A program made the translations under genes and the position numbers. Source: Vicinamibacterales bacterium (GTDB taxonomy: Bacteria; Acidobacteriota; Vicinamibacteria; Vicinamibacterales; CAVVIG01). From it: a stretch of 64,000 nt of DNA. Numbering within the stretch: position 1 is the first letter of the stretch; every line of letters starts with the position of its first letter. This document shows, piece by piece, positions 30,494-53,138 of the stretch. Where the stretch lies: contig DASREL010000107.1 of assembly GCA_035652075.1 (NCBI GenBank), forward strand, positions 12,385-76,384, read 5' to 3'. Under the pieces are notes generated by a model. That model was given only the letters and a program-made list of their open reading frames with translations, had not been told where the DNA came from and ran no database searches.

Positions 30494-30811
30494 ATGGATC
30501 TGCCGCAGGGCACATTGGATCTGCTGATCCTGAAAGCGATCGCGCTCGAACCGCAGCACGGGTGGGCGATCTCGGAACGCATTCAGCAGTTCTCGAATAA
30601 CGCGCTGCGCGTCAATCAAGGTTCCCTCTATCCCGCGCTCCATCGTCTCGAACGCAAAGGCTGGATCAAAGCCGAGTGGGACGTCTCCGATAACAACCGC
30701 AAAGCGAAGTACTACGAGCTGACCGCGAAAGGGAAGCGGCAGCTCGCCGAGCAGACCGATGCATGGCGAGCGCTGACGGCTGCCGTTGGTCTGCTGCTGG
30801 ATCAGACGTAA
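30494..30811 (+). CDS. PadR-family transcriptional regulator (module 1)
   Basis: GTLDLLILKAIALEPQHGWAI...GSLYPALHRLERKGWIKAEW...KYYELTAKG. Confidence 0.9.
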   Translation: MDLPQGTLDLLILKAIALEPQHGWAISERIQQFSNNALRVNQGSLYPALHRLERKGWIKAEWDVSDNNRKAKYYELTAKGKRQLAEQTDAWRALTAAVGLLLDQT

Positions 30812-30866
30812 GCAGCCCTGAAGACTGCGCTACACACGAGGCGGCCCTGACGGGCTGCGCGACAAA
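30812..30866 (+). repeat. Two tandem copies of the 25-nt hairpin element GCAGSCCTGAAGGSCTGCGCTAC
   Basis: gcagccctgaagactgcgctacaca (30812-30836) and gcggccctgacgggctgcgcgacaaa (30841-30866). The second copy ends 2 nt before the permease ATG. Confidence 0.8.
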
Positions 30867-30868
30867 CG

Positions 30869-37997: not shown

Positions 37998-38357
37998 ATG
38001 ATTCGACACAAGCCGGAGCAGCAGCGGTTCGAACTGCTGCATGGGACCCTCGACATGCTGGTGCTGCGCACGCTGCAGTGGGGGCCGCAGCACGGGTATG
38101 CGATCGGCAATGCGATCCGCGCGCAGTCGTCCGAGGCGCTGCAGGTCGAGACCGGGTCGCTCTATCCCGCGCTGCACCGCCTCGAGAAGCTCGGATGCGT
38201 CAAGGCCGAGTGGGGCATGACCGAGGGCAATCAACGAGCGAAGTTCTATCGGCTGACGCCGAAAGGCAAGAAGCAGTTGCTGCGCGAGCAGGAACACTGG
38301 AGCGATCTCGTCGCAGCGATCGGCCGCGTCATGAACCCGGAGCCTGCGAAGGAGTGA
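37998..38357 (+). CDS. PadR-family transcriptional regulator (module 2)
   Basis: GTLDMLVLRTLQWGPQHGYAI...GSLYPALHRLEKLGCVKAEW...KFYRLTPKG. Confidence 0.9.
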   Translation: MIRHKPEQQRFELLHGTLDMLVLRTLQWGPQHGYAIGNAIRAQSSEALQVETGSLYPALHRLEKLGCVKAEWGMTEGNQRAKFYRLTPKGKKQLLREQEHWSDLVAAIGRVMNPEPAKE

Positions 38358-38360
38358 CCG

Positions 38361-41015
38361 ATGCGTCGCCGCGACGTTGACGAAGAGATTCAATCGCACC
38401 TCGCGATGGCCGTTCGCGATCGGATTGCCGCCGGCGAAGATCCGGCGAGCGCCGAGCTCGCCGCCATCCGCGAATTCGGCAACGTCACGCTGACGAGCGA
38501 AGCGACCAAGTCGGTCTGGCGCCGCGGATGGGAAGTCGTCGCGGCCGACGTCTGGCAGGACGTGTGCTATGCGGCGCGGCTGCTGCGGCGCAGCCCGATG
38601 TTCTCAGGCGTCGTCGTGATGGTCCTCGGTCTCGGCATCGGCGCGAACGCCACCGTCTTTACCCTCTTCAAGGCGATCTTCCTCAAGCCGCTGCCCGGCG
38701 TCGTCGCGCCGGCCGACTTGCAGGCCATCGTCGCGCGCAGCAGCGGCGGGCGGACGGTCGGCTTGTCGTATCCCGACTACGAGTACTTGCGCGATCACCA
38801 GCACGTCTTCAGCAACGTGACCGCGTCAGGCATGAGTTCCTTCAACCTCGGCATTGGCAATCGTGCCGAACGTGTCTGGGGCGAGATGGTGACCGGCAAC
38901 TACTTCGAGATGCTCGGCGTCCGCGCCAGCCTCGGGCGGACGCTGATGCCGTCGGACAACGTCGCACCCGGACAGCATCCCGTCGCGGTGATCACCGACG
39001 GCCTGTGGCGGCGCGCGTTCAGCGCCGATCCCGCGATCGTCGGCCAGACGATCCACATCAACGCGCACCCGCTGACGGTTGTCGGCGTCCTCGAGCCGGC
39101 GTTTCACGGAACCGTCGTCAGCCTCGTGATGGATATCTTCATTCCGGCGATGGAGCAGCCGGTCATCGCCGCGGCATTCCGGCCCGTGGGCACACCGCAG
39201 GCGCCGGTCGGCACCGGAATGTTGCGGCAGCGGAACACGCAGTGGGTGATGGTGCTGGGGCGGCCAAGCCCTGGTGTGTCGCTCGCGCAGTCGGCCGCCG
39301 ACGTGCGCGTGCTCGCGGCGCAATTGGCCGCCGACAATCCGACCGCCGACTTCAGCCAACGCGCTGAAGTCCTGCCGTTGTGGCGGTCGCCGTACGGCGC
39401 GCAAACGTACTTGCTGCCGGTCGTGATCCTCCTCGGCGTGATGGGCGGCGTGATTCTGCTGATCGTGTGCGCGAACGTCGCCAACCTCGTGCTCGCCCGC
39501 GGGCTGACACGCCGTGGAGAGATCGCGGTTCGAACGGCGCTCGGCGCCGCGCGCGCACGCGTCATGCGGCTGCTGCTGATCGAAAACGTCATCCTCGCTG
39601 TTCCGGGCGCGCTCGCCGGCATCGTGCTCGCGCGGGCGCTGCTGCCGCTCGCGTCCTTCGGGTCCACGCCGATTGCGCCGATGCAGGTGGAGCTCGATCT
39701 CTCGACGGATCGGCTCGTGACGGCGTACGCGCTCGCCTTGTCGTGCGCGAGCGCGGTCGTCTTTGGATTCGTCCCGGCGTTTCGGATCTCGCGCGTGAAT
39801 CTGGCCGACGTGATGAAGGACGAGCTGTCGCCGCGCGGCGCGGGCCGCACCCGACTGCGAAGCGCGCTCGTCGTCGTGCAGCTGGCGATGTCGGTGCTGC
39901 TGCTCGTCGGGGCGGCGCTCGTCTTGCGCAGCTTGAACGCATCGCGGACGGCAAACGTCGGGTTCGATCCAAACGGCGTCGTATCGCTGTCGCTCGATCT
40001 CAAGCCGAATGGGTACGACGAGGCGCGCGGACGTGTGTTTTACCAGCAACTGCTCGACAACGTGCGCGCGATGCCGCGCGTCGAAGCCGCGACGGTGGCG
40101 GCCTACCTGCCGTTGACGCTGGTCGACGGTTCGTCGTGGAGCGTGACCGTCGAGAAATACGTACGACGCAAAGACGAAGACTTGAGCTTCCTGTACAACA
40201 TCATCTCGCCCGGGTACTTCGAAACGCTGCGCGTCGGTCTCGTGGCCGGCCGCGTGTTCGACCGCCGCGACGACACGGCGGGACCGCTCGTCGCGATCGT
40301 CAACGACACGATGGCGAAGCGATTCTGGAAGACACCGGAGGCCGCGCTCGGCCAGCGGATTCGCGTGGTCAACCAATGGCGCACGATCGTCGGCGTCGCG
40401 AAGGATCTCAAGTACGCGCGGGTGACCGAGAGCCCGCGTCCCTATTTCTATCTGCCGCAGGCACAGCAGTATTTCTCGAACATGACGCTTCAGGTACGCG
40501 CCGGCGATTCGGCCAACGACCTGATTGCACGCCTACGGCCAGTCGTGCAGGCGATGGATCCGAACCTGCCGATTCTCGAGGCGCGTCCGCTGAGCGAGCA
40601 GGTGCGCGTCGCCCTCGCCGGGTACGAGCTCGCGGCGGGCACGCTCATCGTCTTTGGTGTGATGGCGATCGGGCTCGCGGCGATCGGTTTGTACGGTCTT
40701 GTGGCCTACGCGGTTGAACAGAACCGCCACGAACTCGGCATCTGCCTCGCGCTCGGCGCATCGCGCGCCGACGTGCTGCGCCGATTCCTGGTGCGCGGCC
40801 TGCGCCTGGGGACCATCGGCGCCGCGATCGGCGTCCTCGGCGCATTTGCCACGACGCGGCTGATGTCGAGCGTTCTGTACGGGGTCAGCGCCGCCGATCC
40901 GCGTTCGTTTGCGTTTGGTGTCGCCACCGTGATGACCATCACGGTGATCGCGTCGTTCCTGCCCGCGTGGCGGGCATCGCGGACCGATCCGGTGACAGCA
41001 CTTCGAAGGCACTGA
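38361..41015 (+). CDS. ADOP-type duplicated FtsX/MacB-like ABC permease (module 2)
   Basis: Same architecture as module 1. HELGICLALGA FtsX motif near the C-terminus. No ATPase gene adjacent. Confidence 0.85.
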   Translation: MRRRDVDEEIQSHLAMAVRDRIAAGEDPASAELAAIREFGNVTLTSEATKSVWRRGWEVVAADVWQDVCYAARLLRRSPMFSGVVVMVLGLGIGANATVFTLFKAIFLKPLPGVVAPADLQAIVARSSGGRTVGLSYPDYEYLRDHQHVFSNVTASGMSSFNLGIGNRAERVWGEMVTGNYFEMLGVRASLGRTLMPSDNVAPGQHPVAVITDGLWRRAFSADPAIVGQTIHINAHPLTVVGVLEPAFHGTVVSLVMDIFIPAMEQPVIAAAFRPVGTPQAPVGTGMLRQRNTQWVMVLGRPSPGVSLAQSAADVRVLAAQLAADNPTADFSQRAEVLPLWRSPYGAQTYLLPVVILLGVMGGVILLIVCANVANLVLARGLTRRGEIAVRTALGAARARVMRLLLIENVILAVPGALAGIVLARALLPLASFGSTPIAPMQVELDLSTDRLVTAYALALSCASAVVFGFVPAFRISRVNLADVMKDELSPRGAGRTRLRSALVVVQLAMSVLLLVGAALVLRSLNASRTANVGFDPNGVVSLSLDLKPNGYDEARGRVFYQQLLDNVRAMPRVEAATVAAYLPLTLVDGSSWSVTVEKYVRRKDEDLSFLYNIISPGYFETLRVGLVAGRVFDRRDDTAGPLVAIVNDTMAKRFWKTPEAALGQRIRVVNQWRTIVGVAKDLKYARVTESPRPYFYLPQAQQYFSNMTLQVRAGDSANDLIARLRPVVQAMDPNLPILEARPLSEQVRVALAGYELAAGTLIVFGVMAIGLAAIGLYGLVAYAVEQNRHELGICLALGASRADVLRRFLVRGLRLGTIGAAIGVLGAFATTRLMSSVLYGVSAADPRSFAFGVATVMTITVIASFLPAWRASRTDPVTALRRH

Positions 41016-41055: not shown

Positions 41056-43131
41056 CTACGGGACGACGACGACCGGCGCCCGCCAGAACGTGGCCTTCGA
41101 CTCGCCTGGCTCGAGGACGCTGACCTGCACGTCGTATCGTCCGACCGCCAACTCGTCGAGCGGGACGCTGAAGCGCAGCGGCATCGCCTTAGTCTTCGGA
41201 TCGACTTCGCCGATGATCGCGAGCGGCGCCGTCTCGAGCGCCTTCGTCGCTCCTCGATAAAACGTCACGAACGCGACGAGCGGCTGCGTCGTGGCCTCGC
41301 TCCGTTCGTACGCCTGCAGGAACACATACAGGTCCTTGCTTTTGCTGAACACGCGCGTGACGCTCGGCAGGAGCTTCGCGCCGTCGAAAACGAGTGGATT
41401 GACGGTTTCGACGTCCTTCTTCACGGAGTAAATCGCCTGCGCAAGCGGCACGCGCTGGCTGCCGAGGACGACGGAACTGATCGGGACGCGCGCGGTTTCG
41501 CGATTCAGATTCGGGATCGTGAAGTTCGCCTGATAGGTGCCGATGCGGCCCGTTTCGGCGTCGCGAGCCAGCACCTTGATCACGTACTTGCCAGGCAGCA
41601 ACGTGAATCCCGTTTCGTACTGGACCGGATGCTTTGCCAGATCCTGCGCCGTCTGATCGGTCAGCTTGATGTCCAGCTTGTCGCGGACGTTCTGCATTGT
41701 CACGCCGTAGTCGTCCTTCACCTCGCCGATGAAGTCGATTTCGGTGCGCGCGGCGCCGCGACGACGCGCGAGCGCCAGTTCGCTGCCCGGAATCTTGACT
41801 GACACCGGCACGAAGTACTCGGCGCGATTCAACTGGAAGTAATTGATTTCCATCGCGACAGGGATGTCGGTGACGGGGTTCTCGAGCATCAGCGCTTCTT
41901 CGAGCTGGCGCTCCTTGTCGGCCGCGGTGAATTTCCCGAACTCGCGGTCAGCGAAGTAACCCTCGCGGTAGGCGAGATCGCCGGCGAGTCCATTGCGCAG
42001 TGCCACTTTGACGCGGTGGAACTTGCCGTCGAGGGCCGGATGTGTGCTCGTGTAGCCGAGGATGTAATAGCTCGACAGCGACTGCGACGCCTGCACGATC
42101 CCTTGCGACAGATCGTTGTTGTCGAATAGCGCCTTGCCGCCCGTATCTTTCGCTAACGCGTACAGCGTGTCCTGCGACCGTTGAAACTGGTTGAGCCGTG
42201 TGTTGGCTGACTGACCGGTCAGCATGCCGATCCCACGCGGCGAGGCTTGCGTCGCGTCGCCAAGAGGCGCCTCGGCGACGAGGCCGCGGGCGTCGACCGG
42301 AAAGATGGCGACGTTCGCGCGCGTGGCGGCGTTGATCGTGGCGCGCAGTTGCGCCTGATTGTCGACGCCGTTCAGCCGCAGTCCGCTCGAGAAGTACACG
42401 AGCGATTTCTGCTCGGGCAGCGACCGCAGCATCGTCGCGGCCGTCTGCAGCGCCGACAGCTGCCGATCGGTGTTCAGAATATTGAACTCCGCATCGTCTT
42501 GGCCGAATGCGCTGCCGACGTCAGTCTCCTGGTCGGGCAGGTCGCTCGCATCGCGCGACTCGCCGTAAATCAACGTCTCGACGACTTGCTGGAGCGCCGC
42601 GCGGTCGCCGTTGAAATCCGTTTTGACGCGGACCGCGCCGTTCTGGAACGTCAGGATCGCGACAAGGTCCTGCGGCCGGATCTGCTCGGCGAGATATTTC
42701 CGTGCGGCGGTGAATGCGCGCATCTGATCGGGCGGCGGCATCGAACTGAGATCGAAATACAGAACGATCAGCCGCCGATCGCGATAGCGAATGGCCCCGG
42801 CCGTCGAGGCGGCGATGGTCGGTTGCACCGCTGGCGCAGCGCTCGCGGCGCGCGGTGGAGGCGGCGGCGCCGGCGGCAGCGGACGATCGACGGCCGGATC
42901 GATCTCGATGCGCTGAAAGGCGACTTGCGAGATCGTCTGCGGCTCGCCGTCTTCGGTGAGCACGAAGTCGTTCGCGGTGAGCCCATCGATGGGTTTGCCC
43001 TGTTTGTCGGTGACCGTCACGTCGACCACGTTCAGGCGTGCGCCGCTTCTGAAGACCGGCGTCTGGCCGGGTTGCTGCGCTGCGACGAGCGCGGACCCGC
43101 ACGCGATCAACACAAGCACGCGACGCAGCAT
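41056..43131 (-). CDS. Secreted VWA-domain protein (acidobacterial TIGR03436-like)
   Basis: The start is set at MLRRVLVLIACGSALVAAQQ (signal peptide), with the ATG overlapping the upstream stop (TGATG). FRSGARLNVVDVTVTDKQGKPIDGLTANDF and LIVLYFDLSSM are VWA-like motifs. Confidence 0.75.
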   Translation of the reverse strand: MLRRVLVLIACGSALVAAQQPGQTPVFRSGARLNVVDVTVTDKQGKPIDGLTANDFVLTEDGEPQTISQVAFQRIEIDPAVDRPLPPAPPPPPRAASAAPAVQPTIAASTAGAIRYRDRRLIVLYFDLSSMPPPDQMRAFTAARKYLAEQIRPQDLVAILTFQNGAVRVKTDFNGDRAALQQVVETLIYGESRDASDLPDQETDVGSAFGQDDAEFNILNTDRQLSALQTAATMLRSLPEQKSLVYFSSGLRLNGVDNQAQLRATINAATRANVAIFPVDARGLVAEAPLGDATQASPRGIGMLTGQSANTRLNQFQRSQDTLYALAKDTGGKALFDNNDLSQGIVQASQSLSSYYILGYTSTHPALDGKFHRVKVALRNGLAGDLAYREGYFADREFGKFTAADKERQLEEALMLENPVTDIPVAMEINYFQLNRAEYFVPVSVKIPGSELALARRRGAARTEIDFIGEVKDDYGVTMQNVRDKLDIKLTDQTAQDLAKHPVQYETGFTLLPGKYVIKVLARDAETGRIGTYQANFTIPNLNRETARVPISSVVLGSQRVPLAQAIYSVKKDVETVNPLVFDGAKLLPSVTRVFSKSKDLYVFLQAYERSEATTQPLVAFVTFYRGATKALETAPLAIIGEVDPKTKAMPLRFSVPLDELAVGRYDVQVSVLEPGESKATFWRAPVVVVP

Positions 43132-46052
43132 CAGAATCGCACTCGCAGCGTGCTGCTCAATTTGCGCATCGCGTTCGCCTGGATCGGCAACCCGAATTGC
43201 GGACTGCCGACGATGGTGTTGAGACCTGTGTAGGTGACGTGATTCAGGATGTTCGTGGCGTCGACGCGCCAATCGAGCGACCAGCGGCCGCTGCCGAGAA
43301 ACGACCGTCCTGCGCCCGCGTCGAGCGAAAACTGCGACGGCCCGCGGATCGAATTGCGGCCAGCGGTGCCCCATTCTCCGCGTGCCGGCGCGACGAAGGC
43401 GCCGCCGTTCGCATCGCCGCGAATCGATCCGGTGATCGCGGTGCCGGGTACCGAGGTCAGGAAGACCGGCGTGAGCGGCAGGCCGCTGCCCACGGTCAGC
43501 TGACTGGTCAGCGTCCACCCTTTGAGCAGCGCGCCACGCAGGCCGTCGACGAGCGCGCCGCCAGAGACGCCGACGCCGGAGGTGTATTGGAAATTCGCCG
43601 TGACGAGATGCCGTTGATCGAACGTCGACGGCGCGCGCTCGGCGTCCAGATGCAGCCAGTCCTGCGCGATTGCCGATCCGTTCATGCTGGCGCCCAGAAA
43701 TGCCGCTGCTGCATCATCGGTCGATTTCGAGAGCGTGTACTGCACCGATGCCGCGAGGCCGTTGCGGAGGCGCCGCCGCAGTTGCAGCTGCGCCGCGTTC
43801 CGGTCCGATGTGCCATTCGACGCGAGATACACGAAACCCGACGGGCACGCCGGACAGGGATTCGCGGCGCCGATTGGATACGTGTTGGGCAGTGACTCCT
43901 GAAGCAGATGCGTCCCGTGCGTGCCGAGGTACGACGCCACGATCGTCAACGACGCCGGCAGATCGCGCTGCACGAGCAGTTGCCAGTTGTGCGCGTAGCC
44001 GACTCTGAAATCGCGATCGACGGCAAAGGTGTTCGTCGCGGCCGCTCCGGATGTGGCGAAACCATTGGCGAGCGTCAGTGGATGCGTGGGGCTTGATTCG
44101 ACGCTGAGCGTCGTCGACAGCGGTGGTTGCTGCGCCAGCAAGAGATCGATTGCTGAATACACCGATGTGTTGCGGTAGATTCCGTAGCCGCCGCGGACGA
44201 CGAGCGAGGATCCGGCCAACGGCCGCCACGCGACACCGACCCGCGGTTGAAACCCGCCGAAGTCCGCACGCAACGGATTGCTCGAGACCACCTGCGTCGC
44301 CGATGCGAAGTCCGGCGCCAGATTGAGATTCACCAGGCGTCCCAATTGCTCGGTGAACGGCGACTCGAACTCCCAGCGGACGCCGATGTTGGCGGTAAAC
44401 GCCGGGCTGAGGCGCCAGTCGTCTGTCACGTACGCATCGGCGTTTGTGGCGCGCAGCAGCTTGTCGGCGTTGCCGTACGCAATCGCACTCGAATGGGGCA
44501 GTCCCAGCAGGAAATCGCCGACATCCGATCCGGTGGCAAAACCGGTGAACGTGAAGGCGCCGCGCGCGTTCTGCTGAGACGTGACGTCGAGCCGACGCAG
44601 CTTGACGTCGCCGCCAAACGTGACGTTGTGACGGCCGTGATTCCACAGCATTTCGCCGCCGACCGCATGCGTCTGGTCCCGGTTCGACGCGAACTGCGTG
44701 CTCGTCAGCGCCGCGATCCCGCTCGAAAACGCCAGGTTCGGCGAGCCCCAATTCGCCGGGTCCTGGCTGTTGCCGGTGATGCCGGCGTCGCCTGAGACGT
44801 TCTGTCGAAACGCGAAGTACGGCGTCGCGTGCGTGATGAGCGTGGTGTACTGATATCGAAGCCGCAGCGTGAAGAACTGCGAGAACCGATGCGACCATGT
44901 CATCGGCGCATCGACGCCGGTGACGACGTTCGAATCGACGAACCCGAAGATGTTGGCGGCGTCCACCGAAGTCCGCTGAAAGGAGACGGTGCCATAGACC
45001 TGGTTCTTCTGTCCCAGCGTTTGGATGACACGTGTCTGCACTGCGTCTTGAATCGTCGTCGCGAGCACCGGTGCCTGGAAGTTGAATCCTCCTACGCCAT
45101 CGACATTCGGCGTCGGATAGAAATTCATCAGCGCGGCCGCTTGCGGGCTGATGCGCGAGGCGGGAATCACGTTGTTGGGAAATGGCCGTCCGGTCAACGG
45201 ATCGGTAATGGGCGAAGAGAAGATGCCTCGGCGTTCATCGGTCGTCGGCACCAGCGTCGATTGCGTCGTCGCATCGTGGTTCGACGTGTGCTGATAGCCG
45301 AGGAATACATTCGCTTTCGTGCGGAGGCCGGGGATCTTGACGGGTCCCGCGAAGGACCCGACGGCTTGCGCGTCCGAGTACGACGGCTTTGGCGCGGGCT
45401 GATCCGTGAACGAGAACGGCCGCGCGTCCCAGGCGGAGTTGCCGAAAATTACTCCGATGCCGCCGTTGTAGAGCGACCGCGCGCCGCGCCGGTTGTTGCC
45501 GAACGCGGCGAGCTGCGCGAACGGCGATGACGCGCTGTTGTTGACGCTGCCGTTGATCAGAAAGCCTTCGGCCGCATCGCCGGATCGATCGTCTCCGCCG
45601 GCGCCCGCCGCGATTGGCGCATCGGCCGCGCGCGTCGCCGTCACCGTGGCCCGTTGAAATCCTGCGCCGTTGGTGGCACGCGCCGTCAGCGACGGCGCAC
45701 CGGTCTTCACCTCGTTCTTAACGACGTGGCCACTGGCGATCTGATCGAACGGCATGATCGTGAGCGCGAAGACCGGAGCCGGTGCGCCGGCTGCGACGAC
45801 GATGTCCTGGCGTGCGGACATGAATCCAAGCATCGCGACGTCGATCGTCCACGGACCGTCGGTCAGGTCGGCGAATCGATAGGTGCCGTCCTCGTCCGTC
45901 ACGGTCGCGTGCGATTCGCCGCCGTGCGTCGCGGTGACGGCGGCGCCGGGGACCGGCAGTCCCGCAAACGTCACCTGACCGCGGTGTTCCGCCGCTGACG
46001 CGGTGCCGGCAATCGCGCACGCGATCAGCAGACACGCCGTCTCAATTCGCAA
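43131..46052 (-). CDS. Outer-membrane beta-barrel, TonB-dependent-receptor-like, with an N-terminal carboxypeptidase-regulatory-like domain
   Basis: Signal peptide, then GQVTFAGLPVPGAAVTATHGGESHATVTDEDGTYRFADL (CarboxypepD_reg pattern). A long Gly/aromatic-rich barrel follows, ending in LRVRF (terminal Phe). Confidence 0.75.
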   Translation of the reverse strand: MRIETACLLIACAIAGTASAAEHRGQVTFAGLPVPGAAVTATHGGESHATVTDEDGTYRFADLTDGPWTIDVAMLGFMSARQDIVVAAGAPAPVFALTIMPFDQIASGHVVKNEVKTGAPSLTARATNGAGFQRATVTATRAADAPIAAGAGGDDRSGDAAEGFLINGSVNNSASSPFAQLAAFGNNRRGARSLYNGGIGVIFGNSAWDARPFSFTDQPAPKPSYSDAQAVGSFAGPVKIPGLRTKANVFLGYQHTSNHDATTQSTLVPTTDERRGIFSSPITDPLTGRPFPNNVIPASRISPQAAALMNFYPTPNVDGVGGFNFQAPVLATTIQDAVQTRVIQTLGQKNQVYGTVSFQRTSVDAANIFGFVDSNVVTGVDAPMTWSHRFSQFFTLRLRYQYTTLITHATPYFAFRQNVSGDAGITGNSQDPANWGSPNLAFSSGIAALTSTQFASNRDQTHAVGGEMLWNHGRHNVTFGGDVKLRRLDVTSQQNARGAFTFTGFATGSDVGDFLLGLPHSSAIAYGNADKLLRATNADAYVTDDWRLSPAFTANIGVRWEFESPFTEQLGRLVNLNLAPDFASATQVVSSNPLRADFGGFQPRVGVAWRPLAGSSLVVRGGYGIYRNTSVYSAIDLLLAQQPPLSTTLSVESSPTHPLTLANGFATSGAAATNTFAVDRDFRVGYAHNWQLLVQRDLPASLTIVASYLGTHGTHLLQESLPNTYPIGAANPCPACPSGFVYLASNGTSDRNAAQLQLRRRLRNGLAASVQYTLSKSTDDAAAAFLGASMNGSAIAQDWLHLDAERAPSTFDQRHLVTANFQYTSGVGVSGGALVDGLRGALLKGWTLTSQLTVGSGLPLTPVFLTSVPGTAITGSIRGDANGGAFVAPARGEWGTAGRNSIRGPSQFSLDAGAGRSFLGSGRWSLDWRVDATNILNHVTYTGLNTIVGSPQFGLPIQANAMRKLSSTLRVRF

Positions 46053-46899
46053 CCGGATGTTCCACCTTGTCGATCACGAGCACTTTGACCGGACCCTTCT
46101 GCGAATCGAGCTTCAGTCCCAGCTGCTCCTGCACCGCCGTGAACAGTGAAGGACCATTCGGATCGATCGCCACACCGTTGACGAGCGGTTCGGGCGCACC
46201 CGGCGGCCGCTGCGGCAGGTTGTCCGGCGTCCATGTCAGGTTCATGTCGTAGGCGCCAGCCAGCCCGGTTTTGTCGACGACCATGCGCCCGGCAAATTGC
46301 GACAGGACCGTCGCGATTTGCGCGATCGGCGAGCTGCCGACGACCATGTTTCCAAATCCAATGCGGATGCCGCATGGCATCGGCTGCCCTGGCGCCGGAG
46401 GCGGCGGCGGCGCCGCGCCGCGGCCGCGTCCCGTCAGCGCCGCGCAATCGACGTTGGATTTCGTCAACTGCGGACCGAGCTTGCCGTCCGGCCGGTTCAA
46501 CACGAGCGCGAAGATTGGCATCTCGCGTTCCTCGTCGTGGACGACGAGCTTGAAGCGATCCGCGAGCAGCGCGCGCATCATCAGCTGGATCGGTCCGACC
46601 TGCCCGGGCGGCGTGAGCGGCGCGACGAAACCGTCTTCGGCCTTTGCGTTGATGTCGAAGCGGTCGTTCGCGACCCAATCCGGTCCGCCGACGATCTGCG
46701 ACTCCTGCAGACCGTAGGCGTTGCGGATCAGTTGTCGGAGCGACACGTTCGATGCGGTGAACCGACCGCCGGGCTGCATGCCCATCATCACGCGCCCATC
46801 GCCGGAGTTGTTCGGTTTGATCGACGCGACCTCGAATTGGGGAGTGCCCTGCGCGAGCGTCGCAGCGGCAAACGCCGCCAGCATCAGTGTTCTGATCAT
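46042..46899 (-). CDS. Stand-alone TIGR03435-like (Solibacter-type) secreted protein
   Basis: Signal peptide, then PQFEVASIKPNNSG, GGRFTASNVSLRQLIRNAY, GGPDWVANDRFDI, and C-terminal KGPVKVLVIDKVEHP. Confidence 0.75.
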   Translation of the reverse strand: MIRTLMLAAFAAATLAQGTPQFEVASIKPNNSGDGRVMMGMQPGGRFTASNVSLRQLIRNAYGLQESQIVGGPDWVANDRFDINAKAEDGFVAPLTPPGQVGPIQLMMRALLADRFKLVVHDEEREMPIFALVLNRPDGKLGPQLTKSNVDCAALTGRGRGAAPPPPPAPGQPMPCGIRIGFGNMVVGSSPIAQIATVLSQFAGRMVVDKTGLAGAYDMNLTWTPDNLPQRPPGAPEPLVNGVAIDPNGPSLFTAVQEQLGLKLDSQKGPVKVLVIDKVEHPVAN

Positions 46900-46907
46900 G
46901 TTCGTTC

Positions 46908-48728
46908 CTAGTTGTTGGCGGGATGTTCCGCGTGATCGATCACGAGCATGACGACCGGACCCTTCTGAGCGTCAAGCTTGAGTCCCAACTGTTCTTGCAC
47001 GGCGGTGAAGATCGACGGCCCGTTCGGATCGATCGCCCCTGCGGGCGCAAAGCCGGCCTTGAGCGCGAGACCGGGCGTCGACTGGTCGGGCGTCCACTTC
47101 AACGTCGCGTCGAATTCGCCGTCGAGGCCCGTGCGATCGATGACACTGCGGTCCAGCAGTCCCGACAGGTTCGTCGCGAGCTGCGCGATGCTGACGCTTG
47201 CCATGTTCATCGTGCCCAGCCCGAGCCGGATGCCGCAATTCTTCGCGTCGTCGCAGCGCGTCGTCGAACGATGCAGGTCGGTCCCGAGACGGCCGTCCGG
47301 GCGCGACAGCACCAGCGCGTAGAGCGGCTGCTCGCGCGACTCGCTGCGCGTGCCGAGGGCGAACCGTTCGAGGAGCAACGCGCGGACCATCAGCGTCACG
47401 TCGCTGCTCTCATCGCCTTTCGCGACGATGTCGAACCGATCGCTGGTGATCCAGTCAGGTCCGCCGCTGACCTGGAACGATTGCAGTTTGTAGGCAAACT
47501 GCACCAGGTTCTTCAGCGTCACGTTGATCGCGGTAAATCGCCCGCCTGGTGACGTCTGTATCCGTACTGGTCCCTTGCCGCTGGTGTTCGGTTTGATGGA
47601 GGCGACCTCGAACTGCGGCAGCGGTCCGCTCTGCTGCGGCGTCACCTGCAATAACTGCGGACGCGACACGCGCAGCGCCACCGTCCGGACGTCCTCGCGC
47701 TGCACGTAACGGACTGGCGCCGTGATCGCGCCAAGCGAGATCGGTGCGGCGACGGCTCCGATGGCGGCCAATGCTAGGACAGCCTTGCGCGCGCGGGAGA
47801 GACGGCGCGGAGCGCGACTCGTCATGATGCGCTCGATTCGCCGGGCGAGATTCGATCCGGTGACGCCGGCGACGCATGCGAGCGGCGATTCGACATAGAT
47901 CCGGCACGCTTTCAGAATCGTCGCCGCGTACAGTTCGGGCTCGCTGCCGGACTGGAGTACCGCTTCGTCGCACGCGCGCTCGCGTTCTTCGATTTGGCGT
48001 GCGCCGAGCCACCAGACGAGCGGGTGGAACCAGAACAGCGCCTCGACAGCCATCTGAACCGCCGCCGCGAGATTGTCGCGCCGCCGCACGTGCGCGACCT
48101 CGTGCGCGAGAATCGTCGCGATGTGATCGTCGGCGAAATGATCGACGATCGATTTCGGCAGAATCAGAATCGGCCGCCGGATTCCGAACACGCCCGGCTC
48201 GATCGTCGTGTCCGAGTACCGCAGGTCGATCGTCGTTGTGTGTCCGTCGGCTCGTTCGATGGCGCGAAGCGCGGCGACGGCAGGACCGTCGTCGATCGGC
48301 GCGCTCGCGCGTGCAATCGCGCCGACGCGGCGCCACCGCACAATCGACGACGTTGCGAGCGTGAGCGTTCCGGCGAACCAGATCGCCAGTGCGGCCCACG
48401 TCGTCGTGCTCATGGCGTCGGCTGACGCGTCCTGCAGCGACGGATCGTCGAGGCCGAGCCCGGCGCGTGGCAGGCCGAGCCGCGTGTCGTTGAGCACGAG
48501 CGTGATCTCGCGACGCACGGGCGCGGTCGCGGCGGTGCGCACCCCGAGGGCGCCGCCGAGCGCGACCAGTGCCGCAAAGGGGATCAGGAACTTGACCGAT
48601 GCGGCCAGCCACATGGCATGCCGGACTGCGGCGCGGTCGCGGCGAAACGCCAACGTGCCGAGCGCGATGACGAGAGCGCAGACGGTCGATTGCAGCAGGT
48701 GGTCCGAGAGGAGTCTCAGCGGCGTCAT
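46908..48728 (-). CDS. BlaR1-like M56 membrane metalloprotease fused to a TIGR03435-like C-terminal domain
   Basis: The start MTPLRLLSDHLLQ lies 2 nt after the blaI stop. TM helices and HEVAHVRRRDN (HExxH). The C-terminal half repeats the PQFEVASIKPNTSG...GGPDWITSDRFDI...KGPVVMLVIDHAEHP series. Confidence 0.8.
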   Translation of the reverse strand: MTPLRLLSDHLLQSTVCALVIALGTLAFRRDRAAVRHAMWLAASVKFLIPFAALVALGGALGVRTAATAPVRREITLVLNDTRLGLPRAGLGLDDPSLQDASADAMSTTTWAALAIWFAGTLTLATSSIVRWRRVGAIARASAPIDDGPAVAALRAIERADGHTTTIDLRYSDTTIEPGVFGIRRPILILPKSIVDHFADDHIATILAHEVAHVRRRDNLAAAVQMAVEALFWFHPLVWWLGARQIEERERACDEAVLQSGSEPELYAATILKACRIYVESPLACVAGVTGSNLARRIERIMTSRAPRRLSRARKAVLALAAIGAVAAPISLGAITAPVRYVQREDVRTVALRVSRPQLLQVTPQQSGPLPQFEVASIKPNTSGKGPVRIQTSPGGRFTAINVTLKNLVQFAYKLQSFQVSGGPDWITSDRFDIVAKGDESSDVTLMVRALLLERFALGTRSESREQPLYALVLSRPDGRLGTDLHRSTTRCDDAKNCGIRLGLGTMNMASVSIAQLATNLSGLLDRSVIDRTGLDGEFDATLKWTPDQSTPGLALKAGFAPAGAIDPNGPSIFTAVQEQLGLKLDAQKGPVVMLVIDHAEHPANN

Positions 48729-48730
48729 CG

Positions 48731-49108
48731 CTATTTGTCCTTTCGTGCGAGCTTGCGCAGCGTTCGTTCCGCCTCGTGGACATCGTCGAGCGTCAGCTTG
48801 CCGGTTTCGATGAGATGCGCGACGACCGGTTGCGTGCGCCCACCGAAGAAGCTGAGAAGCTCGTCGATCACGCGTCGCTGGGCGTTCGCACGCGTAATCT
48901 GCGGCTCGAAGATGAACGCGTTGCCGACCTTTTTGACGCGCCGGACGGCCTTCTTGGCTTCGAGCCGCGACACGATCGTCTGCACGGTCGTATAGGCAGG
49001 TCTGCCGGCGGCCGGCAGCGCCTCTTGAATCTCGCGGACCGACGCCGGACCGAGGGTCCACAACGCGTCCATGATCTGCAATTCGAGCTTCGACAGTTTC
49101 GGTGCCAC
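48731..49108 (-). CDS. blaI: BlaI/MecI/CopY-family transcriptional repressor
   Basis: LSKLELQIMDALWTLGPASVREIQEAL...YTTVQTIVSRLEAKKAV. GTG start. Confidence 0.9.
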   Translation of the reverse strand: MAPKLSKLELQIMDALWTLGPASVREIQEALPAAGRPAYTTVQTIVSRLEAKKAVRRVKKVGNAFIFEPQITRANAQRRVIDELLSFFGGRTQPVVAHLIETGKLTLDDVHEAERTLRKLARKDK

Positions 49109-49137
49109 GCGTGCTCCTATAGACGTAGCAATAACTA

Positions 49138-49149
49138 CTACAGTTGTAG
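49138..49149. promoter_or_regulatory. TACA/TGTA dyad (candidate BlaI operator) in the blaI / ABC divergent spacer
   Basis: CTACA-gt-TGTAG at 49138-49149. BlaI/MecI operators are known to be built on TACA...TGTA dyads. Confidence 0.45.
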
Positions 49150-49154
49150 GTGGA

Positions 49155-49913
49155 ATGGCAAGGGCGTCATGTACACTGCCGCCCGTGGCGCTGTCCGTCG
49201 ATCACCTCCGCAAGGCGTACGACACGCTCGTCGCCGTTGACGATCTGTCGTTCGCCGTCGGTGCTGGCGAAATCGTGGGCCTGATCGGACCGAACGGCGC
49301 AGGAAAGACGACGACGCTCCGGTCGCTGGCCGGCATTCTGCGCCCGACCTCGGGCACGATCGCGATCGATGGACACGATCTCCTTGCGGCGCCAATCGAA
49401 GCCAAGCGCCGGCTCGCGTTCATGCCGGACGAGCCGCATCTCTTCGAATATCTGACCGTCGAGGAGCATCTTCGACTCGTCGCGCGGTTGTACACCGTCG
49501 ACGACTTCGATCGCCGCTCGCGCGCGCTGATCGACGAACTCGAACTGACCGGGAAAGAGAAGTCGCTGCCGGGCGAGCTGTCCCGCGGCATGCGTCAGAA
49601 GGTCGTCATCGCGTGCGGCCTCGTGCGGAACGCGACGACCTTGCTGTTCGACGAGCCGCTGACCGGACTCGATCCGATCGGCATCCGGCGCATGCGCGAG
49701 ACGATCGTTTCGCGCGCGCGCGCCGGCGCGTCGATCCTGCTGTCGTCCCATCTGCTGCACCTCGTCGAAGAGATCTGCTCGCGCGTGATCATCATGGCCG
49801 GCGGGAAGAAAATCGCGGACGGCACCTTCGCCGAGCTCGCGACGCGCGCCGATCTTGCGACGGCCGGATCGAACCTCGAGCAGATCTTTCTGCGCGTCAC
49901 CGGTCACGAGTAG
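49155..49913 (+). CDS. ABC transporter ATP-binding protein
   Basis: GPNGAGKTT (Walker A), LSRGMRQK (signature-like), LLFDEP (Walker B). The start is uncertain (ATG 49155 or a downstream GTG). Confidence 0.85.
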   Translation: MARASCTLPPVALSVDHLRKAYDTLVAVDDLSFAVGAGEIVGLIGPNGAGKTTTLRSLAGILRPTSGTIAIDGHDLLAAPIEAKRRLAFMPDEPHLFEYLTVEEHLRLVARLYTVDDFDRRSRALIDELELTGKEKSLPGELSRGMRQKVVIACGLVRNATTLLFDEPLTGLDPIGIRRMRETIVSRARAGASILLSSHLLHLVEEICSRVIIMAGGKKIADGTFAELATRADLATAGSNLEQIFLRVTGHE

Positions 49914-49917
49914 GTAA

Positions 49918-51681
49918 ATGCTCTTGGCCAGCCTTTACATCGTTCTGTGCAGCGCGAGAAACCGGCTGAACAGGCGGATGAAACGCCTGCGCGAACCGCG
50001 ATACCTGCTCGGCGCCGTCGTCGGCGTCGCGTACTTCTACTTCGCGATCTTCGCGCGCACCCGCGGGCGCAATGCAGCCCTCGACGCGGCGCGCGCGAGA
50101 AACGCGAACCGTCAGCGCCGAGGTCCCGATCCGGCGGCGGCGATCGCGATGGTCAGCGCATCCGGACCGGCGCTCGCTGGCCTCGCGTTTCTCGTGCTCG
50201 GCATCGTCGCATGGGTGTTGCCGTTCGACAGCGGCTTGCTCGACTTTTCGGAGGCCGAAACGGCCTTTCTCTTCCCGGCGCCGATCTCGCGCCGCGCGCT
50301 GCTGGTTCACCGCATGATGCGGTCGCAGCTTGGGATCTTGTTTGGATCGGTCATCGTCGCCTTCGCTGCGGGCTCCGTCACCGGATGGATGCGCCTCCGC
50401 ATTTCGATCGGGATGTGGCTGGTGTTCGTGACGATCAAGTTGTATTTCACCGTGGTCACGCTGGCGCGCACGCGGCTGACGGCGGAGCGCGTCACGACGC
50501 GGGTGCTTGCGTGGGCGCCGCTCGCGTTGCTGTTGGCGATGTTGACGACGGCCGGCACGGCACTCGTGCGCGCATTTGCCGCGTCGCCGGTCGAAAGCGT
50601 GCGCGATGCGTTCCAGCGCCTCGGCGCAGTGTCGCTGACTGGCGCATCGAGCGTCGCGTTGTGGCCTTTCGTCACGCTTGCACGTCCGCTCTTTGCGCCC
50701 GATTGGCCCGCCTACGTCCGCGCGCTCGGATGGGGCGTTGCACTCCTCGGGGCGTTAGTCGTCTGGGTGCTGGCGACAGACGATGCGTTCGAGGAGGCGG
50801 CGGCGCATGCGGCGGCGAGACGGGCCGCGAAGGCACAGTCGAAGCGGGCTTCGCTCGGACGGGCGCGGGCAACCGGCTTATCGCTCGCGCTGAACGGCCG
50901 TCCCGAGACGGCGTTCTTCTGGAAGAACGGCGTGCAGACGCTGCGCCTCGCGGGGCTGTCCGTCCTGCGGATCGCCATTGCGATGATCGTCATCGTCGTG
51001 ACCAGCACGTCTGCGACGTTCAACGCGCTGCATCTGCAGGGCGTCGCGGCCACGGCGTGCCTCGTGTCGATCGCGCTGGCAGGGTTCGCGGCGATTCTTG
51101 GCCCGCAGGTCGTGCGGACCGACTTGCGCAGCGATCTGACGCACCTCGATGTGCTGAAAACGTGGCCCGTTCGCGCTGCGGCCGTAATCCGCGGCGAGAT
51201 GGCGTGGCCGGCGGTGATGCTGACGATCGTGGGGTGGATCGCGATCGCGTCGGCGACCGCATTTTCTGCCGCGGCGTTTCCGCGGGTGGCGCTGGCGACG
51301 CGGCTGTCGGTGTCGGCGGCGGCGCTGCTCTTGATGCCCGCGCTCGTGTTCGCGCAGTATCTCGTGCAGAATGCCGCGGCGGTCATCTTTCCGGCATGGG
51401 TGCCGCTTGGCGACCAGCGTCCCCGCGGCGTCGATGCGATGGGGCAGCGGATCATCCTGCTCGCTGGCGTGCTCCTGTCGGTCGCGGTGATGCTCCTGCC
51501 CGGAGCCTTCGTCGGCGGCATCCTCTGGCTCGCTTTCCAACGCATCGTCGGTCCACCGATCTTCGTCGTCGGCGCGTTCGTCTGCCTGGCGTTTGTCGCG
51601 CTCGAAGTCCTTGCCGGAACAGAAATGCTCGGGCCGGTGTATGAACGCTTGGACGTGTTGGCGATCGAGCGCGCTGAGTGA
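49918..51681 (+). CDS. Large polytopic membrane protein, putative ABC-exporter permease partner
   Basis: At least 10 hydrophobic segments. It begins 5 nt after the ATPase stop. The family assignment is tentative. Confidence 0.6.
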   Translation: MLLASLYIVLCSARNRLNRRMKRLREPRYLLGAVVGVAYFYFAIFARTRGRNAALDAARARNANRQRRGPDPAAAIAMVSASGPALAGLAFLVLGIVAWVLPFDSGLLDFSEAETAFLFPAPISRRALLVHRMMRSQLGILFGSVIVAFAAGSVTGWMRLRISIGMWLVFVTIKLYFTVVTLARTRLTAERVTTRVLAWAPLALLLAMLTTAGTALVRAFAASPVESVRDAFQRLGAVSLTGASSVALWPFVTLARPLFAPDWPAYVRALGWGVALLGALVVWVLATDDAFEEAAAHAAARRAAKAQSKRASLGRARATGLSLALNGRPETAFFWKNGVQTLRLAGLSVLRIAIAMIVIVVTSTSATFNALHLQGVAATACLVSIALAGFAAILGPQVVRTDLRSDLTHLDVLKTWPVRAAAVIRGEMAWPAVMLTIVGWIAIASATAFSAAAFPRVALATRLSVSAAALLLMPALVFAQYLVQNAAAVIFPAWVPLGDQRPRGVDAMGQRIILLAGVLLSVAVMLLPGAFVGGILWLAFQRIVGPPIFVVGAFVCLAFVALEVLAGTEMLGPVYERLDVLAIERAE

Positions 51682-52400: not shown

Positions 52401-53138
52401 TTACTTGGTGACGACTTCGTAGGAGCCGGACGTCGGCTTGGTGTTCGTGTAGAGCGGAATCGCGCGGCCGTCGACGTACTTCGTGACCTTGTAGAGCGTT
52501 GCGCCGCTGCCGCGCAGTTCGATCGGGCGACCGCCCGCGAGGCGATTGACGCTCGCGACGTAGTCTTTCGTTTCCCGGTAGGGCGGCACCGTTTGACCGT
52601 GATTGTCGACGGCGCCCGGTCCGGCGTTGTAGGCGGCGAGCGCGAGTTCCTCGTTGTTGTCGTAGCGATCGAGCAGCGCGCGCAGGTAGGCGACGCCTGC
52701 GCGAACGTTTTCCGCCGGGTTGTAGGCGTTCCGCACGCCGTACTGTTTCGCCGTCGCCGGCATCAGCTGCATCAACCCCATTGCGCCCTTGGGCGATCGC
52801 GCAAGCGGGTTGAATCCCGACTCCACTTGCATCACCGCGCGCACCAGATCGACGCGCACGTTGTTTTCGCGTGCGTGCTCGACGATCAGATCATCGTACG
52901 TCCGCGACCGTTCTCCAGCCACATACCGCGTTGCGCGAATGCTCTGCGATTCGCGGACGGCGAACGTCTTCCGCGCCTCACCTGGCTTATGATCGGAAAG
53001 GACGAGGTGTCCGTTGGCGTCGCGCCAGGTGTAGATCTGCGCGCGCGCCGGCGCGGCCGCCAGCACTATCGTTGCGGTCAGGATGTAACGGAGCCCATTC
53101 GGGCTGCGGAAACTGCTGAGCATGCGCCGGTAAGTCAA
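52401..53138 (-). CDS. Lytic transglycosylase (SLT domain) with an N-terminal DUF4124-like segment
   Basis: IYTWRDANGHLVLSD, then VMQVESGFNPLARSPKGAMGLMQLMPAT and AYNAGPGAV. Confidence 0.85.
   Translation of the reverse strand: MTYRRMLSSFRSPNGLRYILTATIVLAAAPARAQIYTWRDANGHLVLSDHKPGEARKTFAVRESQSIRATRYVAGERSRTYDDLIVEHARENNVRVDLVRAVMQVESGFNPLARSPKGAMGLMQLMPATAKQYGVRNAYNPAENVRAGVAYLRALLDRYDNNEELALAAYNAGPGAVDNHGQTVPPYRETKDYVASVNRLAGGRPIELRGSGATLYKVTKYVDGRAIPLYTNTKPTSGSYEVVTK

Follow-up and report, generated by a model that had tools for sequence, protein, structure and literature searches.

A stretch of 64,000 nucleotides (nt) from the genome of a Vicinamibacterales bacterium (contig DASREL010000107.1), which in its full length is called the window below, contains five coupled genes on the minus strand between positions 41056 and 49108. 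They encode a BlaI-type repressor, a fusion of an M56 protease with a DUF3738/TIGR03435 domain, a stand-alone protein of the same DUF3738 family, an outer-membrane barrel, and a TIGR03436 protein that resembles von Willebrand factor A (VWA) proteins. An initial annotation, made from the sequence, had proposed that these genes form an operon in which proteolytic derepression by an extracellular cue controls an envelope module. The features of the locus are the following (aa, amino acids):

49109..49175, minus strand: blaI promoter/operator, from a reading of the sequence
48731..49108, minus strand: blaI, 125 aa, GTG start codon, AGGAG 5 nt upstream
46908..48728, minus strand: gene for the M56-DUF3738/TIGR03435 fusion, 606 aa
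46042..46899, minus strand: stand-alone DUF3738/TIGR03435 gene, 285 aa
43131..46052, minus strand: outer-membrane barrel gene, 973 aa, TTG start codon, AGGTGGA upstream
41056..43131, minus strand: TIGR03436 VWA-like gene, 691 aa

The listing of open reading frames (ORFs), direct reads of the sequence and independent gene calls agreed on these five genes, and the direct reads verified that the junctions are exactly those that had been annotated, i.e., a 2-nt gap, an 8-nt gap, an 11-nt overlap and a TGATG overlap. The identical five genes are present on two public contigs, and the independent gene calls made there resulted in the same products and the same junctions. Promoter-like and terminator-like matches inside the operon were not more frequent than expected from shuffled sequences. 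Taken together with the coupled junctions and with an operator that is found at the blaI promoter only, there was no sign of separate transcription.

The repressor and its operator

The first gene product is a member of the BlaI family (PF03965, 7e-27, 94.5 bits compared to a cut-off of 22.6, residues 5-117). It aligns end to end with Staphylococcus aureus BlaI (1sd4) and with the Mycobacterium tuberculosis protein 2g9w, and it also aligns with 1p6r. A comparison of 78 BlaI orthologues revealed that they are highly conserved, including the C-terminal region. The best NCBIfam match was the CopY/TcrY family (TIGR02698), with a score of 57.8 bits that is below the cut-off of 121.95. The protein is devoid of any cysteine, therefore it lacks the C-terminal CxC metal site of CopY and is not a metal sensor of this type. 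Because of the missing cysteines, CopY-type metal sensing was rejected.

The blaI promoter contains a TTGCCA -35-like hexamer at 49163-49158. Between this hexamer and the start codon, at 49138-49149, lies the perfect dyad CTACAACTGTAG, which overlaps the spacer and the -10 region. A second, imperfect site, CTACGTCTATAGGAG, is located about 21 nt downstream of CTACAACTGTAG and overlaps the ribosome-binding site of blaI. TACA/TGTA is the half-site of BlaI and MecI operators. The dyad CTACAACTGTAG is the sole match in the 64-kb window (0.12 expected). The annotated region had ended at 49149, which is the outer edge of this operator-like palindrome, and the palindrome itself had not been mentioned. 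The same arrangement is found upstream of nearly all of 75 related blaI genes, which share TTGAC/TTGCC, then [T/A]ACAnnTGTAGTAG, and then ACAnnn[A/G]TAG[G/T]AG just before the start codon. TACANNTGTAGTAG was searched with up to two mismatches in 4.37 Mb, corresponding to both strands of 160 loci. This mismatch-tolerant scan replaced a strict regular expression for the composite operator, which had yielded one match only in the metagenome loci. It revealed 130 matches, 69 of which are within 150 nt upstream of blaI, and about 30 others represent these palindromes on the opposite strand. The overlap of the operator with the promoter and the ribosome-binding site implies an autorepression of the whole unit.

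Divergently from blaI, the plus strand encodes an ABC ATPase (252 aa, ATG at 49155) and a permease of 587 aa that matches PF16962 ("putative ABC exporter"), together spanning 49155-51681. The intergenic gap between blaI and the ABC gene is only 46 nt, and therefore the blaI -35 hexamer and the operator overlap the 5'-end and the promoter region of the ABC gene. In this genome BlaI might co-regulate the exporter. The pairing is not conserved among the related loci, and for this reason a functional tie to the ABC exporter was set aside.

The protease-sensor fusion and the envelope proteins

The second gene product combines an M56 protease domain (PF05569, residues 12-300, 1e-36, 126.8 bits compared to a cut-off of 31) with a C-terminal DUF3738 domain at residues 371-606 (PF12543, 2e-49; TIGR03435, 1e-61, 208.7 bits compared to a cut-off of 40). 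The motif HEVAH aligns with HEYAH of S. aureus BlaR1, and ERERACDE aligns with NEVEADR (PDB 8exs/8exp). Both motifs are invariant in 28 fusion homologues, including H209, E210 and H213. Four hydrophobic 19-mers (10-28, 45-63, 112-130 and 317-335) match BlaR1 in their positions; segments 3 and 4 flank the protease domain, and DUF3738 comes after segment 4. The homology to BlaR1 and a conserved Cys pair in DUF3738 point to an orientation with a cytoplasmic protease and a sensor outside. The annotated resemblance of the gene pair to the beta-lactam sensing pair was thus verified by the PF03965 and PF05569 matches and by the alignment of HEVAHVRRRDN to BlaR1, and so was the view that the sensor is not a penicillin-binding domain, because the C-terminus of the fusion is DUF3738/TIGR03435. 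The NCBIfam model blaR1_generic matched residues 109-328 only, with 86 bits compared to a cut-off of 400.

At least 6,998 homologues of the fusion were found at E<=1e-10, the best non-self homologue was 62% identical, and all among the matches listed carry both PF05569 and PF12543. A search of a representative library with a profile of 622 positions yielded 156,840 matches at E<=1e-3 and 18,997 at E<=1e-30; the profile included the M56 columns, and as a result both families, M56 and DUF3738, contribute to these counts, which serve as an upper scale only. In metagenome-scale data there are thousands of M56-DUF3738 fusions. At four loci (L013, L015, L024 and L074) two tandem fusions are encoded behind a single blaI gene. 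Many fusion proteins of about 800-1100 aa (P0361, P0364, P0365 and others) contain 2-4 stretches that are matched by the profile, an indication of sensors with more than one DUF3738 domain.

The product of the third gene consists of a signal-peptide-like N-terminus and a DUF3738 domain (TIGR03435, 5e-67, 226.2 bits compared to a cut-off of 40) that shares 50% identity with the fusion's sensor domain (BLASTP, 5e-82). Both copies match the TIGR03435 model over its full length. These results are in agreement with the annotation of this gene as a duplicate of the sensor domain in the form of a secreted stand-alone protein. A Cys pair is nearly invariant in DUF3738 and, together with the signal peptide, it fits an extracytoplasmic location. 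The sensor domains had a median identity of 0.47 to the free DUF3738 proteins of their own locus versus 0.41 to those of other loci (median percentile 0.955), and the own-locus protein was the best match of the sensor in 5 of 24 cases. The sensor and the free forms do not fall into separate clades.

An AlphaFold2 model of the free DUF3738 protein was obtained with good confidence (pLDDT 86.8, pTM 0.76). It contains an N-terminal hairpin, followed by two similar halves with a beta-alpha-beta-beta-alpha-beta(-beta) arrangement. A structure prediction had been suggested in the initial annotation, and for the domain alone it was thus successful; a fold relative did not emerge, as Foldseek did not reveal a fold match of the model in the PDB (best E=1.5, TM about 0.11). 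It was considered that the domain might consist of two beta-alpha-beta units similar to STN or the secretin N0 domain. This was rejected, because an hhalign comparison of the N-terminal and the C-terminal half was non-significant (E=0.28) and Foldseek did not support it. Sequence and profile searches of the PDB did not reveal a relative of DUF3738, of the barrel or of the VWA-like protein. A full-text literature search found no paper that names TIGR03435, DUF3738, TIGR03436 or the "VWFA-related" domain, consistent with the annotation of TIGR03435 and TIGR03436 as families without an assigned function. It did not reveal a paper on BlaR1 and M56 in Acidobacteria either, and no pertinent information was found in the Solibacter genome paper or in a paper on the evolution of TonB.

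The barrel protein carries a CarboxypepD_reg domain (PF13620, residues 24-94, 2e-13, 51 bits) and an Oar-type barrel (PF25183 OMP_b-brl_4, residues 204-963, 1e-152, 510.7 bits). Its order is signal peptide, CarboxypepD_reg head, a low-complexity linker with the motif GFQRATVTAT, the motif DGFLINGSVNN, the Oar-type barrel, and a C-terminal Phe. Orthologous barrels share the order of signal peptide, head, a low-complexity linker of variable length, DGFLINGSVNNG...AFGNNRRG...LYNGG, and PF25183. In these orthologues the PF25183 match sets in near model position 18, the last residue is always Phe, and the LINGS motif is located 134-233 residues from the start, varying with the length of the linker. 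A Plug domain (PF07715) was not detected at E<=0.01 in the whole protein, nor at E<=10 in residues 95-317, and PF00593 did not match the barrel either. The barrel of an orthologous locus, L161 (see below), also had no Plug match. In generic paralogous barrels from the same loci, about 130-145 residues separate the head from barrel position 1, and two of six had a Plug match. As no Plug is detectable in its sequence, the operon barrel is called plug-less in the following. The annotation as a "TonB-dependent-receptor-like" barrel therefore holds for the CarboxypepD_reg head and the Oar-type barrel, and it does not hold for the defining Plug domain. The linker motif GFQRATVTAT (residues 133-142; window about 45627-45656, minus strand) looks like a TonB box. 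Its consensus, GFQR[AT]x[VL][NT]x[SA], is present in 23 of 50 orthologues, always 29-55 aa before DGFLINGS.

The last protein matches TIGR03436 (8.5e-73, 245.6 bits compared to a cut-off of 81.25, residues 25-395). Neither Pfam VWA (PF00092/PF13519) nor any other Pfam family matched it, even at E<=10, and the metal ion-dependent adhesion site (MIDAS) motif is degenerate (the window has D123-L-S-S-M and the consensus DLSAM, versus DxSxS). Thus, of the description as a secreted VWA protein, the TIGR03436 match stood, while a Pfam VWA match and an intact MIDAS were absent. It is by far the most conserved product of the operon, with 68-90% identity among the top 120 homologues compared to a maximum of 62% for the fusion, and its beta-rich C-terminal half is the most conserved part. 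This strong conservation of an exported protein suggests that it may interact with conserved cell machinery and not with variable external surfaces. An AlphaFold2 model of the protein had a low confidence (pLDDT 52.7), and a Foldseek search with it matched tandem beta-sandwiches only (RbmA and transglutaminase C-terminal domains). The model gives a hint that an N-terminal beta region could be followed by a VWA-like alpha/beta domain and tandem beta-sandwiches.

In summary, Pfam and NCBIfam searches with hidden Markov models upheld each domain call of the initial annotation. The PADLOC models of anti-phage defence yielded a weak winged helix-turn-helix-type match for BlaI only and no match for the other four proteins, and on this basis a role as a defence system was rejected.

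Conserved linkage across the Acidobacteriota

To analyse the conservation of the gene cluster, the fusion was used as an anchor to retrieve 80 loci, with one genome per species and a best match of 48% identity, and the ORFs of these loci were compared with the window proteins by BLASTP. The frequencies given here and for the reverse test below refer to the 80 best matches of each scan, not to whole families. With one exception, the loci are from metagenome-assembled genomes (MAGs) labelled Acidobacteriota, including Vicinamibacterales, Bryobacterales, Terriglobales/Acidobacteriaceae, Acidoferrales and others. The exception, L011 (VFYY01000013.1), is from a MAG labelled Acidimicrobiia and has the full BlaI-fusion-barrel-VWA arrangement at typical identity; its label is likely to result from a binning error rather than from horizontal transfer.

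A blaI gene was found directly upstream of the fusion gene in 76 of the 80 loci. At least 6 kb of downstream sequence was available for 62 of them, and in 38 of these the barrel gene (45-61% identity) and the VWA-like gene (50-72%) follow on the same strand, while two have the barrel gene only. At L161, with a homologue of 48% identity, the same five genes are present on a 573-kb contig between unrelated flanks. This difference in the flanks indicates that the five-gene cassette moves as a unit between genomic contexts. The flanks at L161 (18519-20159, plus strand, and neighbours) are polysaccharide-related (Polysacc_synt, radical SAM, MBOAT, GT2 and PMT).

A reverse test was anchored at the VWA-like gene and performed with metagenome contigs, which yielded 22 loci with at least 5.5 kb of upstream sequence. 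The barrel gene is directly upstream in all 22, and a gene with a DUF3738 domain, in the form of 1-9 free tandem copies or as an M56 fusion, adjoins the barrel gene in 19. These counts indicate that the conserved core is [DUF3738-domain gene]n-barrel-VWA, and that BlaI/M56 is a frequent add-on. In the fusion-anchored set, the barrel is most often preceded by the fusion alone (12 loci), whereas the fusion plus one free copy, i.e., the arrangement of the window, is found at five loci; the sensor domain of the add-on can thus be the sole DUF3738 copy of an operon. The recurrence in dozens of distantly related genomes shows that the linkage is far beyond chance, and the five-gene linkage that had been expected for related genomes was found across orders of Acidobacteriota. 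At L151 (27-6822, plus strand), nine tandem and divergent stand-alone DUF3738 genes are located directly upstream of one barrel-VWA pair, and no BlaI/M56 genes were found within the 10 kb that precede this array, which represents an extreme of the varying DUF3738 copy number.

Proposed regulation and its relation to known systems

The results are best described by an autorepressed operon of the BlaI/BlaR1 type. BlaI dimers would bind the two TACA-N2-TGTA-type sites over the blaI promoter and ribosome-binding site and keep the expression of all five translationally coupled genes low. The M56 zinc protease would reside in the inner membrane with the topology of BlaR1 and would expose DUF3738 to the periplasm in place of a penicillin-binding domain. 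Upon engagement of a ligand by this sensor, the cytoplasmic protease domain would, by analogy with BlaR1, cleave and inactivate BlaI, and the operon would be derepressed. The consequence would be higher levels of the plug-less Oar-type barrel, of its tightly co-evolving VWA-like/beta-sandwich partner, with which it may form a complex, and of free periplasmic or secreted DUF3738. As the sensor is a membrane-tethered paralogue of the DUF3738 component of the module, the cue is most likely the ligand of the free protein. This molecule would probably be handled by the barrel-VWA pair or pass through it, so that induction would provide more of the machinery that deals with the cue. Such a logic of sensor and target would parallel that of BlaR1, the sensor of which is a paralogue of the penicillin-binding enzymes that are induced. 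The uptake or adhesion role that had been annotated for the envelope module is a guess. Otherwise, the overall interpretation of the initial annotation was supported by the domain searches, the conserved linkage and the lack of signs of separate transcription. The regulatory core, i.e., the control of this operon by the repressor and the protease, is regarded as highly probable, and the full proposal, in which the DUF3738 component of the module itself, in a tethered copy, acts as the sensor, is given about an even chance.

Several observations weigh against the full proposal. A BlaI+M56 pair was present within 10 kb in only about 8 of the 22 VWA-anchored loci and was missing in roughly 14, and the operator scan yielded no match upstream of DUF3738-barrel modules without blaI. 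Therefore, the switch is not integral to the module. Conversely, this barrel-VWA pair is missing downstream of 22 of the 62 fusions; some of these loci continue into divergent CarboxypepD_reg+PF25183 barrels (L045 and L066) and others into unrelated genes. The number of free DUF3738 copies varies from 0 to 9 per locus, which is a poor fit to a fixed stoichiometric role. At the cleavage site of S. aureus BlaI (N101|F102), the aligned residues of the window protein read A-H|L; the surrounding region is strongly conserved in the 78 orthologues, but the cleavage of BlaI cannot be read from the sequence. DUF3738 is without a detectable fold relative, and therefore the binding of a ligand is purely inferred. 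Finally, the similarity of sensor and free DUF3738 from the same locus may reflect a shared specificity or merely a shared lineage, the latter of which would be unfavourable for the proposal.

As an alternative, the M56-tethered DUF3738 might dock directly to the barrel, similar to FecR and FecA. It would contact the periplasmic face or the linker of the plug-less barrel, for example at the GFQRxxVxA or the DGFLINGS motif, and report the occupancy of the barrel, and the free DUF3738 would compete for this site or serve as its gate. Fusions of M56 proteins with TonB_C, Plug or CarbopepD_reg_2, which are domains of TonB-dependent barrels or bind to them, are frequent (PMC13492132). In addition, the operon barrel has no detectable Plug, while there is space for one in its generic paralogues, of which two of six had a Plug match, and a short conserved linker motif is present in 23 of 50 barrels. 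The gene order would also fit, because a DUF3738-domain gene directly precedes the barrel gene in 19 of 22 loci, the M56-fused copy is often the sole copy, and the paralogous BlaI-M56-DUF3738 loci L045 and L066 continue into paralogous barrels. However, a structural similarity of DUF3738 to TonB_C, STN or plug domains was not found (Foldseek best E=1.5), and up to nine divergent free copies per barrel look like a diversity of ligands or cargo and not like a single docking partner. Docking is thus considered to be unlikely. It is tempting to extend it to the whole family: DUF3738 could be a new fold that serves as a periplasmic partner of plug-less Oar-type barrels, either as a gate or plug in trans or as a docking adaptor, and the M56-tethered copies could provide a phylum-wide route from the state of the barrel via the M56 protease to BlaI cleavage. 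This extension is speculative and quite unlikely. If it were true, DUF3738 would constitute a previously unrecognised trans-envelope route with thousands of paralogous copies, a FecA/FecR analogue based on the proteolysis of a repressor.

The variable tandem arrays of free DUF3738 genes (1-9) upstream of one barrel gene could also be explained if the free proteins were cargo, which would be exported through the Oar-type barrel like PopC through Oar in Myxococcus. The tethered copy would then sense a periplasmic build-up of cargo by homotypic interaction and adjust the expression of the exporter. This would be in line with the higher similarity of the sensor domain to the free copy of its own locus, and Oar, the founding member of this barrel subclass, does secrete a protein (PMC6434023). 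However, secretion by Oar needs Plug and a TonB box (PMC6434023), neither of which is detectable in the operon barrel, and a free DUF3738 gene is missing from the 12 fusion-only chains of the fusion-anchored set and from two VWA-anchored loci. The role of the strongly conserved VWA protein would also be left unexplained. A feedback by secretion cargo is therefore thought to be very unlikely. Highly improbable is the view that the pair is not involved in signalling at all, i.e., that BlaI is a simple or metal-responsive, CopY-like repressor, M56 is a housekeeping membrane protease, and the envelope genes are merely co-transcribed. The sub-threshold CopY/TcrY match of BlaI (57.8 bits) would agree with this, and many M56 proteins have no recognisable sensor (PMC13492132). 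It is contradicted by the lack of cysteines and thus of the CopY CxC site in BlaI, by the adjacency of BlaI and M56 in 76 of 80 loci, by the conservation of the sensor-domain fusion in thousands of proteins, and by the invariant catalytic residues.

The proposed autorepressed operon has much in common with the BlaI/BlaR1 and MecI/MecR1 systems of S. aureus and Bacillus licheniformis. A PF03965 repressor gene is directly upstream of a PF05569 M56 protease gene, HEXXH and the downstream acidic motif are conserved, and four membrane segments are predicted, with the protease between segments 3 and 4 and an extracytoplasmic sensor at the C-terminus. TACA/TGTA-type dyads over the promoter imply autoregulation, and the regulated unit encodes a paralogue of the sensor. 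In contrast, the sensor is DUF3738/TIGR03435 and not a penicillin-binding transpeptidase fold, neither a beta-lactamase nor a penicillin-binding protein is regulated, and blaI and the protease gene are co-directional with their targets in one operon instead of being divergent. Furthermore, the residues of the BlaI cleavage site are not conserved, and the sensor would face the periplasm because the host is diderm, unlike the hosts of BlaI/BlaR1.

BlaIR systems with sensors for signals other than beta-lactams have been established experimentally (PMC13492132; bioRxiv 10.64898/2026.08.03.742534). In a survey of about 15,000 M56 proteins, a transpeptidase domain was present in only about 6%, and the M56 architectures of 100 or more entries that the survey names do not include DUF3738 (PMC13492132). 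CenIR of Clostridioides difficile (PMC13492132) and PvmSR of Pseudomonas aeruginosa (bioRxiv 10.64898/2026.08.03.742534) likewise consist of a BlaI-like repressor and an M56 protein that has no domain for binding beta-lactams, and have non-resistance or envelope targets. The regulatory pair of the window lacks the penicillin-binding sensor that defines BlaR1 and belongs with these non-canonical BlaIR systems. It differs from CenIR in that the C-terminal region of CenR is largely unstructured, whereas the sensor here is a well-folded member of a highly expanded family, and it differs from both systems in the regulated module of barrel, VWA and DUF3738, which is Acidobacteriota-specific.

The barrel shares with Oar-subclass TonB-dependent transporters, e.g., Oar of Myxococcus xanthus (PMC6434023), the CarboxypepD_reg extension, a large PF25183 barrel and the C-terminal Phe. 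Myxococcus Oar needs Plug and a TonB box to secrete PopC (PMC6434023), whereas the operon barrel has no detectable Plug or canonical TonB box and contains a length-variable low-complexity linker between head and barrel; moreover, there are no Ton genes near the operon. The likeness to FecA-FecR-FecI concerns a possible logic only, i.e., an outer-membrane barrel coupled to an inner-membrane protein and a proteolysis-linked signal that alters the expression of the barrel's own operon. An STN domain, an anti-sigma factor and an extracytoplasmic function (ECF) sigma factor are absent, a putative repressor-cleaving M56 protease would take the place of site-1/site-2 proteolysis, and the contact between barrel and sensor is putative.

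The individual domains and the fusion are already present in databases ("M56 family metallopeptidase", "TIGR03435 family protein"). Literature descriptions of the conserved operon, the operator, the DUF3738-barrel-VWA core, the missing fold match of DUF3738 or the plug-less barrel were not found. The operon is not a surprise in principle, but it makes two very large and so far uncharacterised families accessible to concrete tests, in a phylum whose members belong to the most abundant bacteria of soil. TIGR03435/DUF3738, with thousands of homologues found, and TIGR03436 count among the largest protein families that are specific to Acidobacteria, and both become testable questions because the operon provides a regulator, an operator and a fixed outer-membrane partner. 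In addition, the operon contributes a very large and structurally distinct class of sensors to a view that is now taking shape, in which BlaIR systems serve generally as transducers of envelope signals and not as beta-lactam sensors.

The G+C content is even over the operon region. The neighbours of the operon include the housekeeping genes leuS, holA, alaS and recX and genes that are typical for Acidobacteria, indicating that the operon is chromosomal DNA, and the nearest named homologues are from Vicinamibacterales. Two pairs of PadR (TIGR03433) and ADOP duplicated-permease (TIGR03434) genes are located at 30494-33481 and 37998-41015, both on the plus strand, and the second pair converges on the VWA-like gene with a gap of 40 nt. 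ADOP genes are also present near many of the related loci, but neither their position nor their orientation is constant. A functional relation of the operon with the PadR-ADOP pair was rejected, as the variable placement is consistent with the high copy number of the ADOP family. A gene for a protein with DUF4124 and an SLT lytic transglycosylase domain (52401-53138, minus strand) lies between the ABC exporter genes and alaS and has no evident link to the operon.

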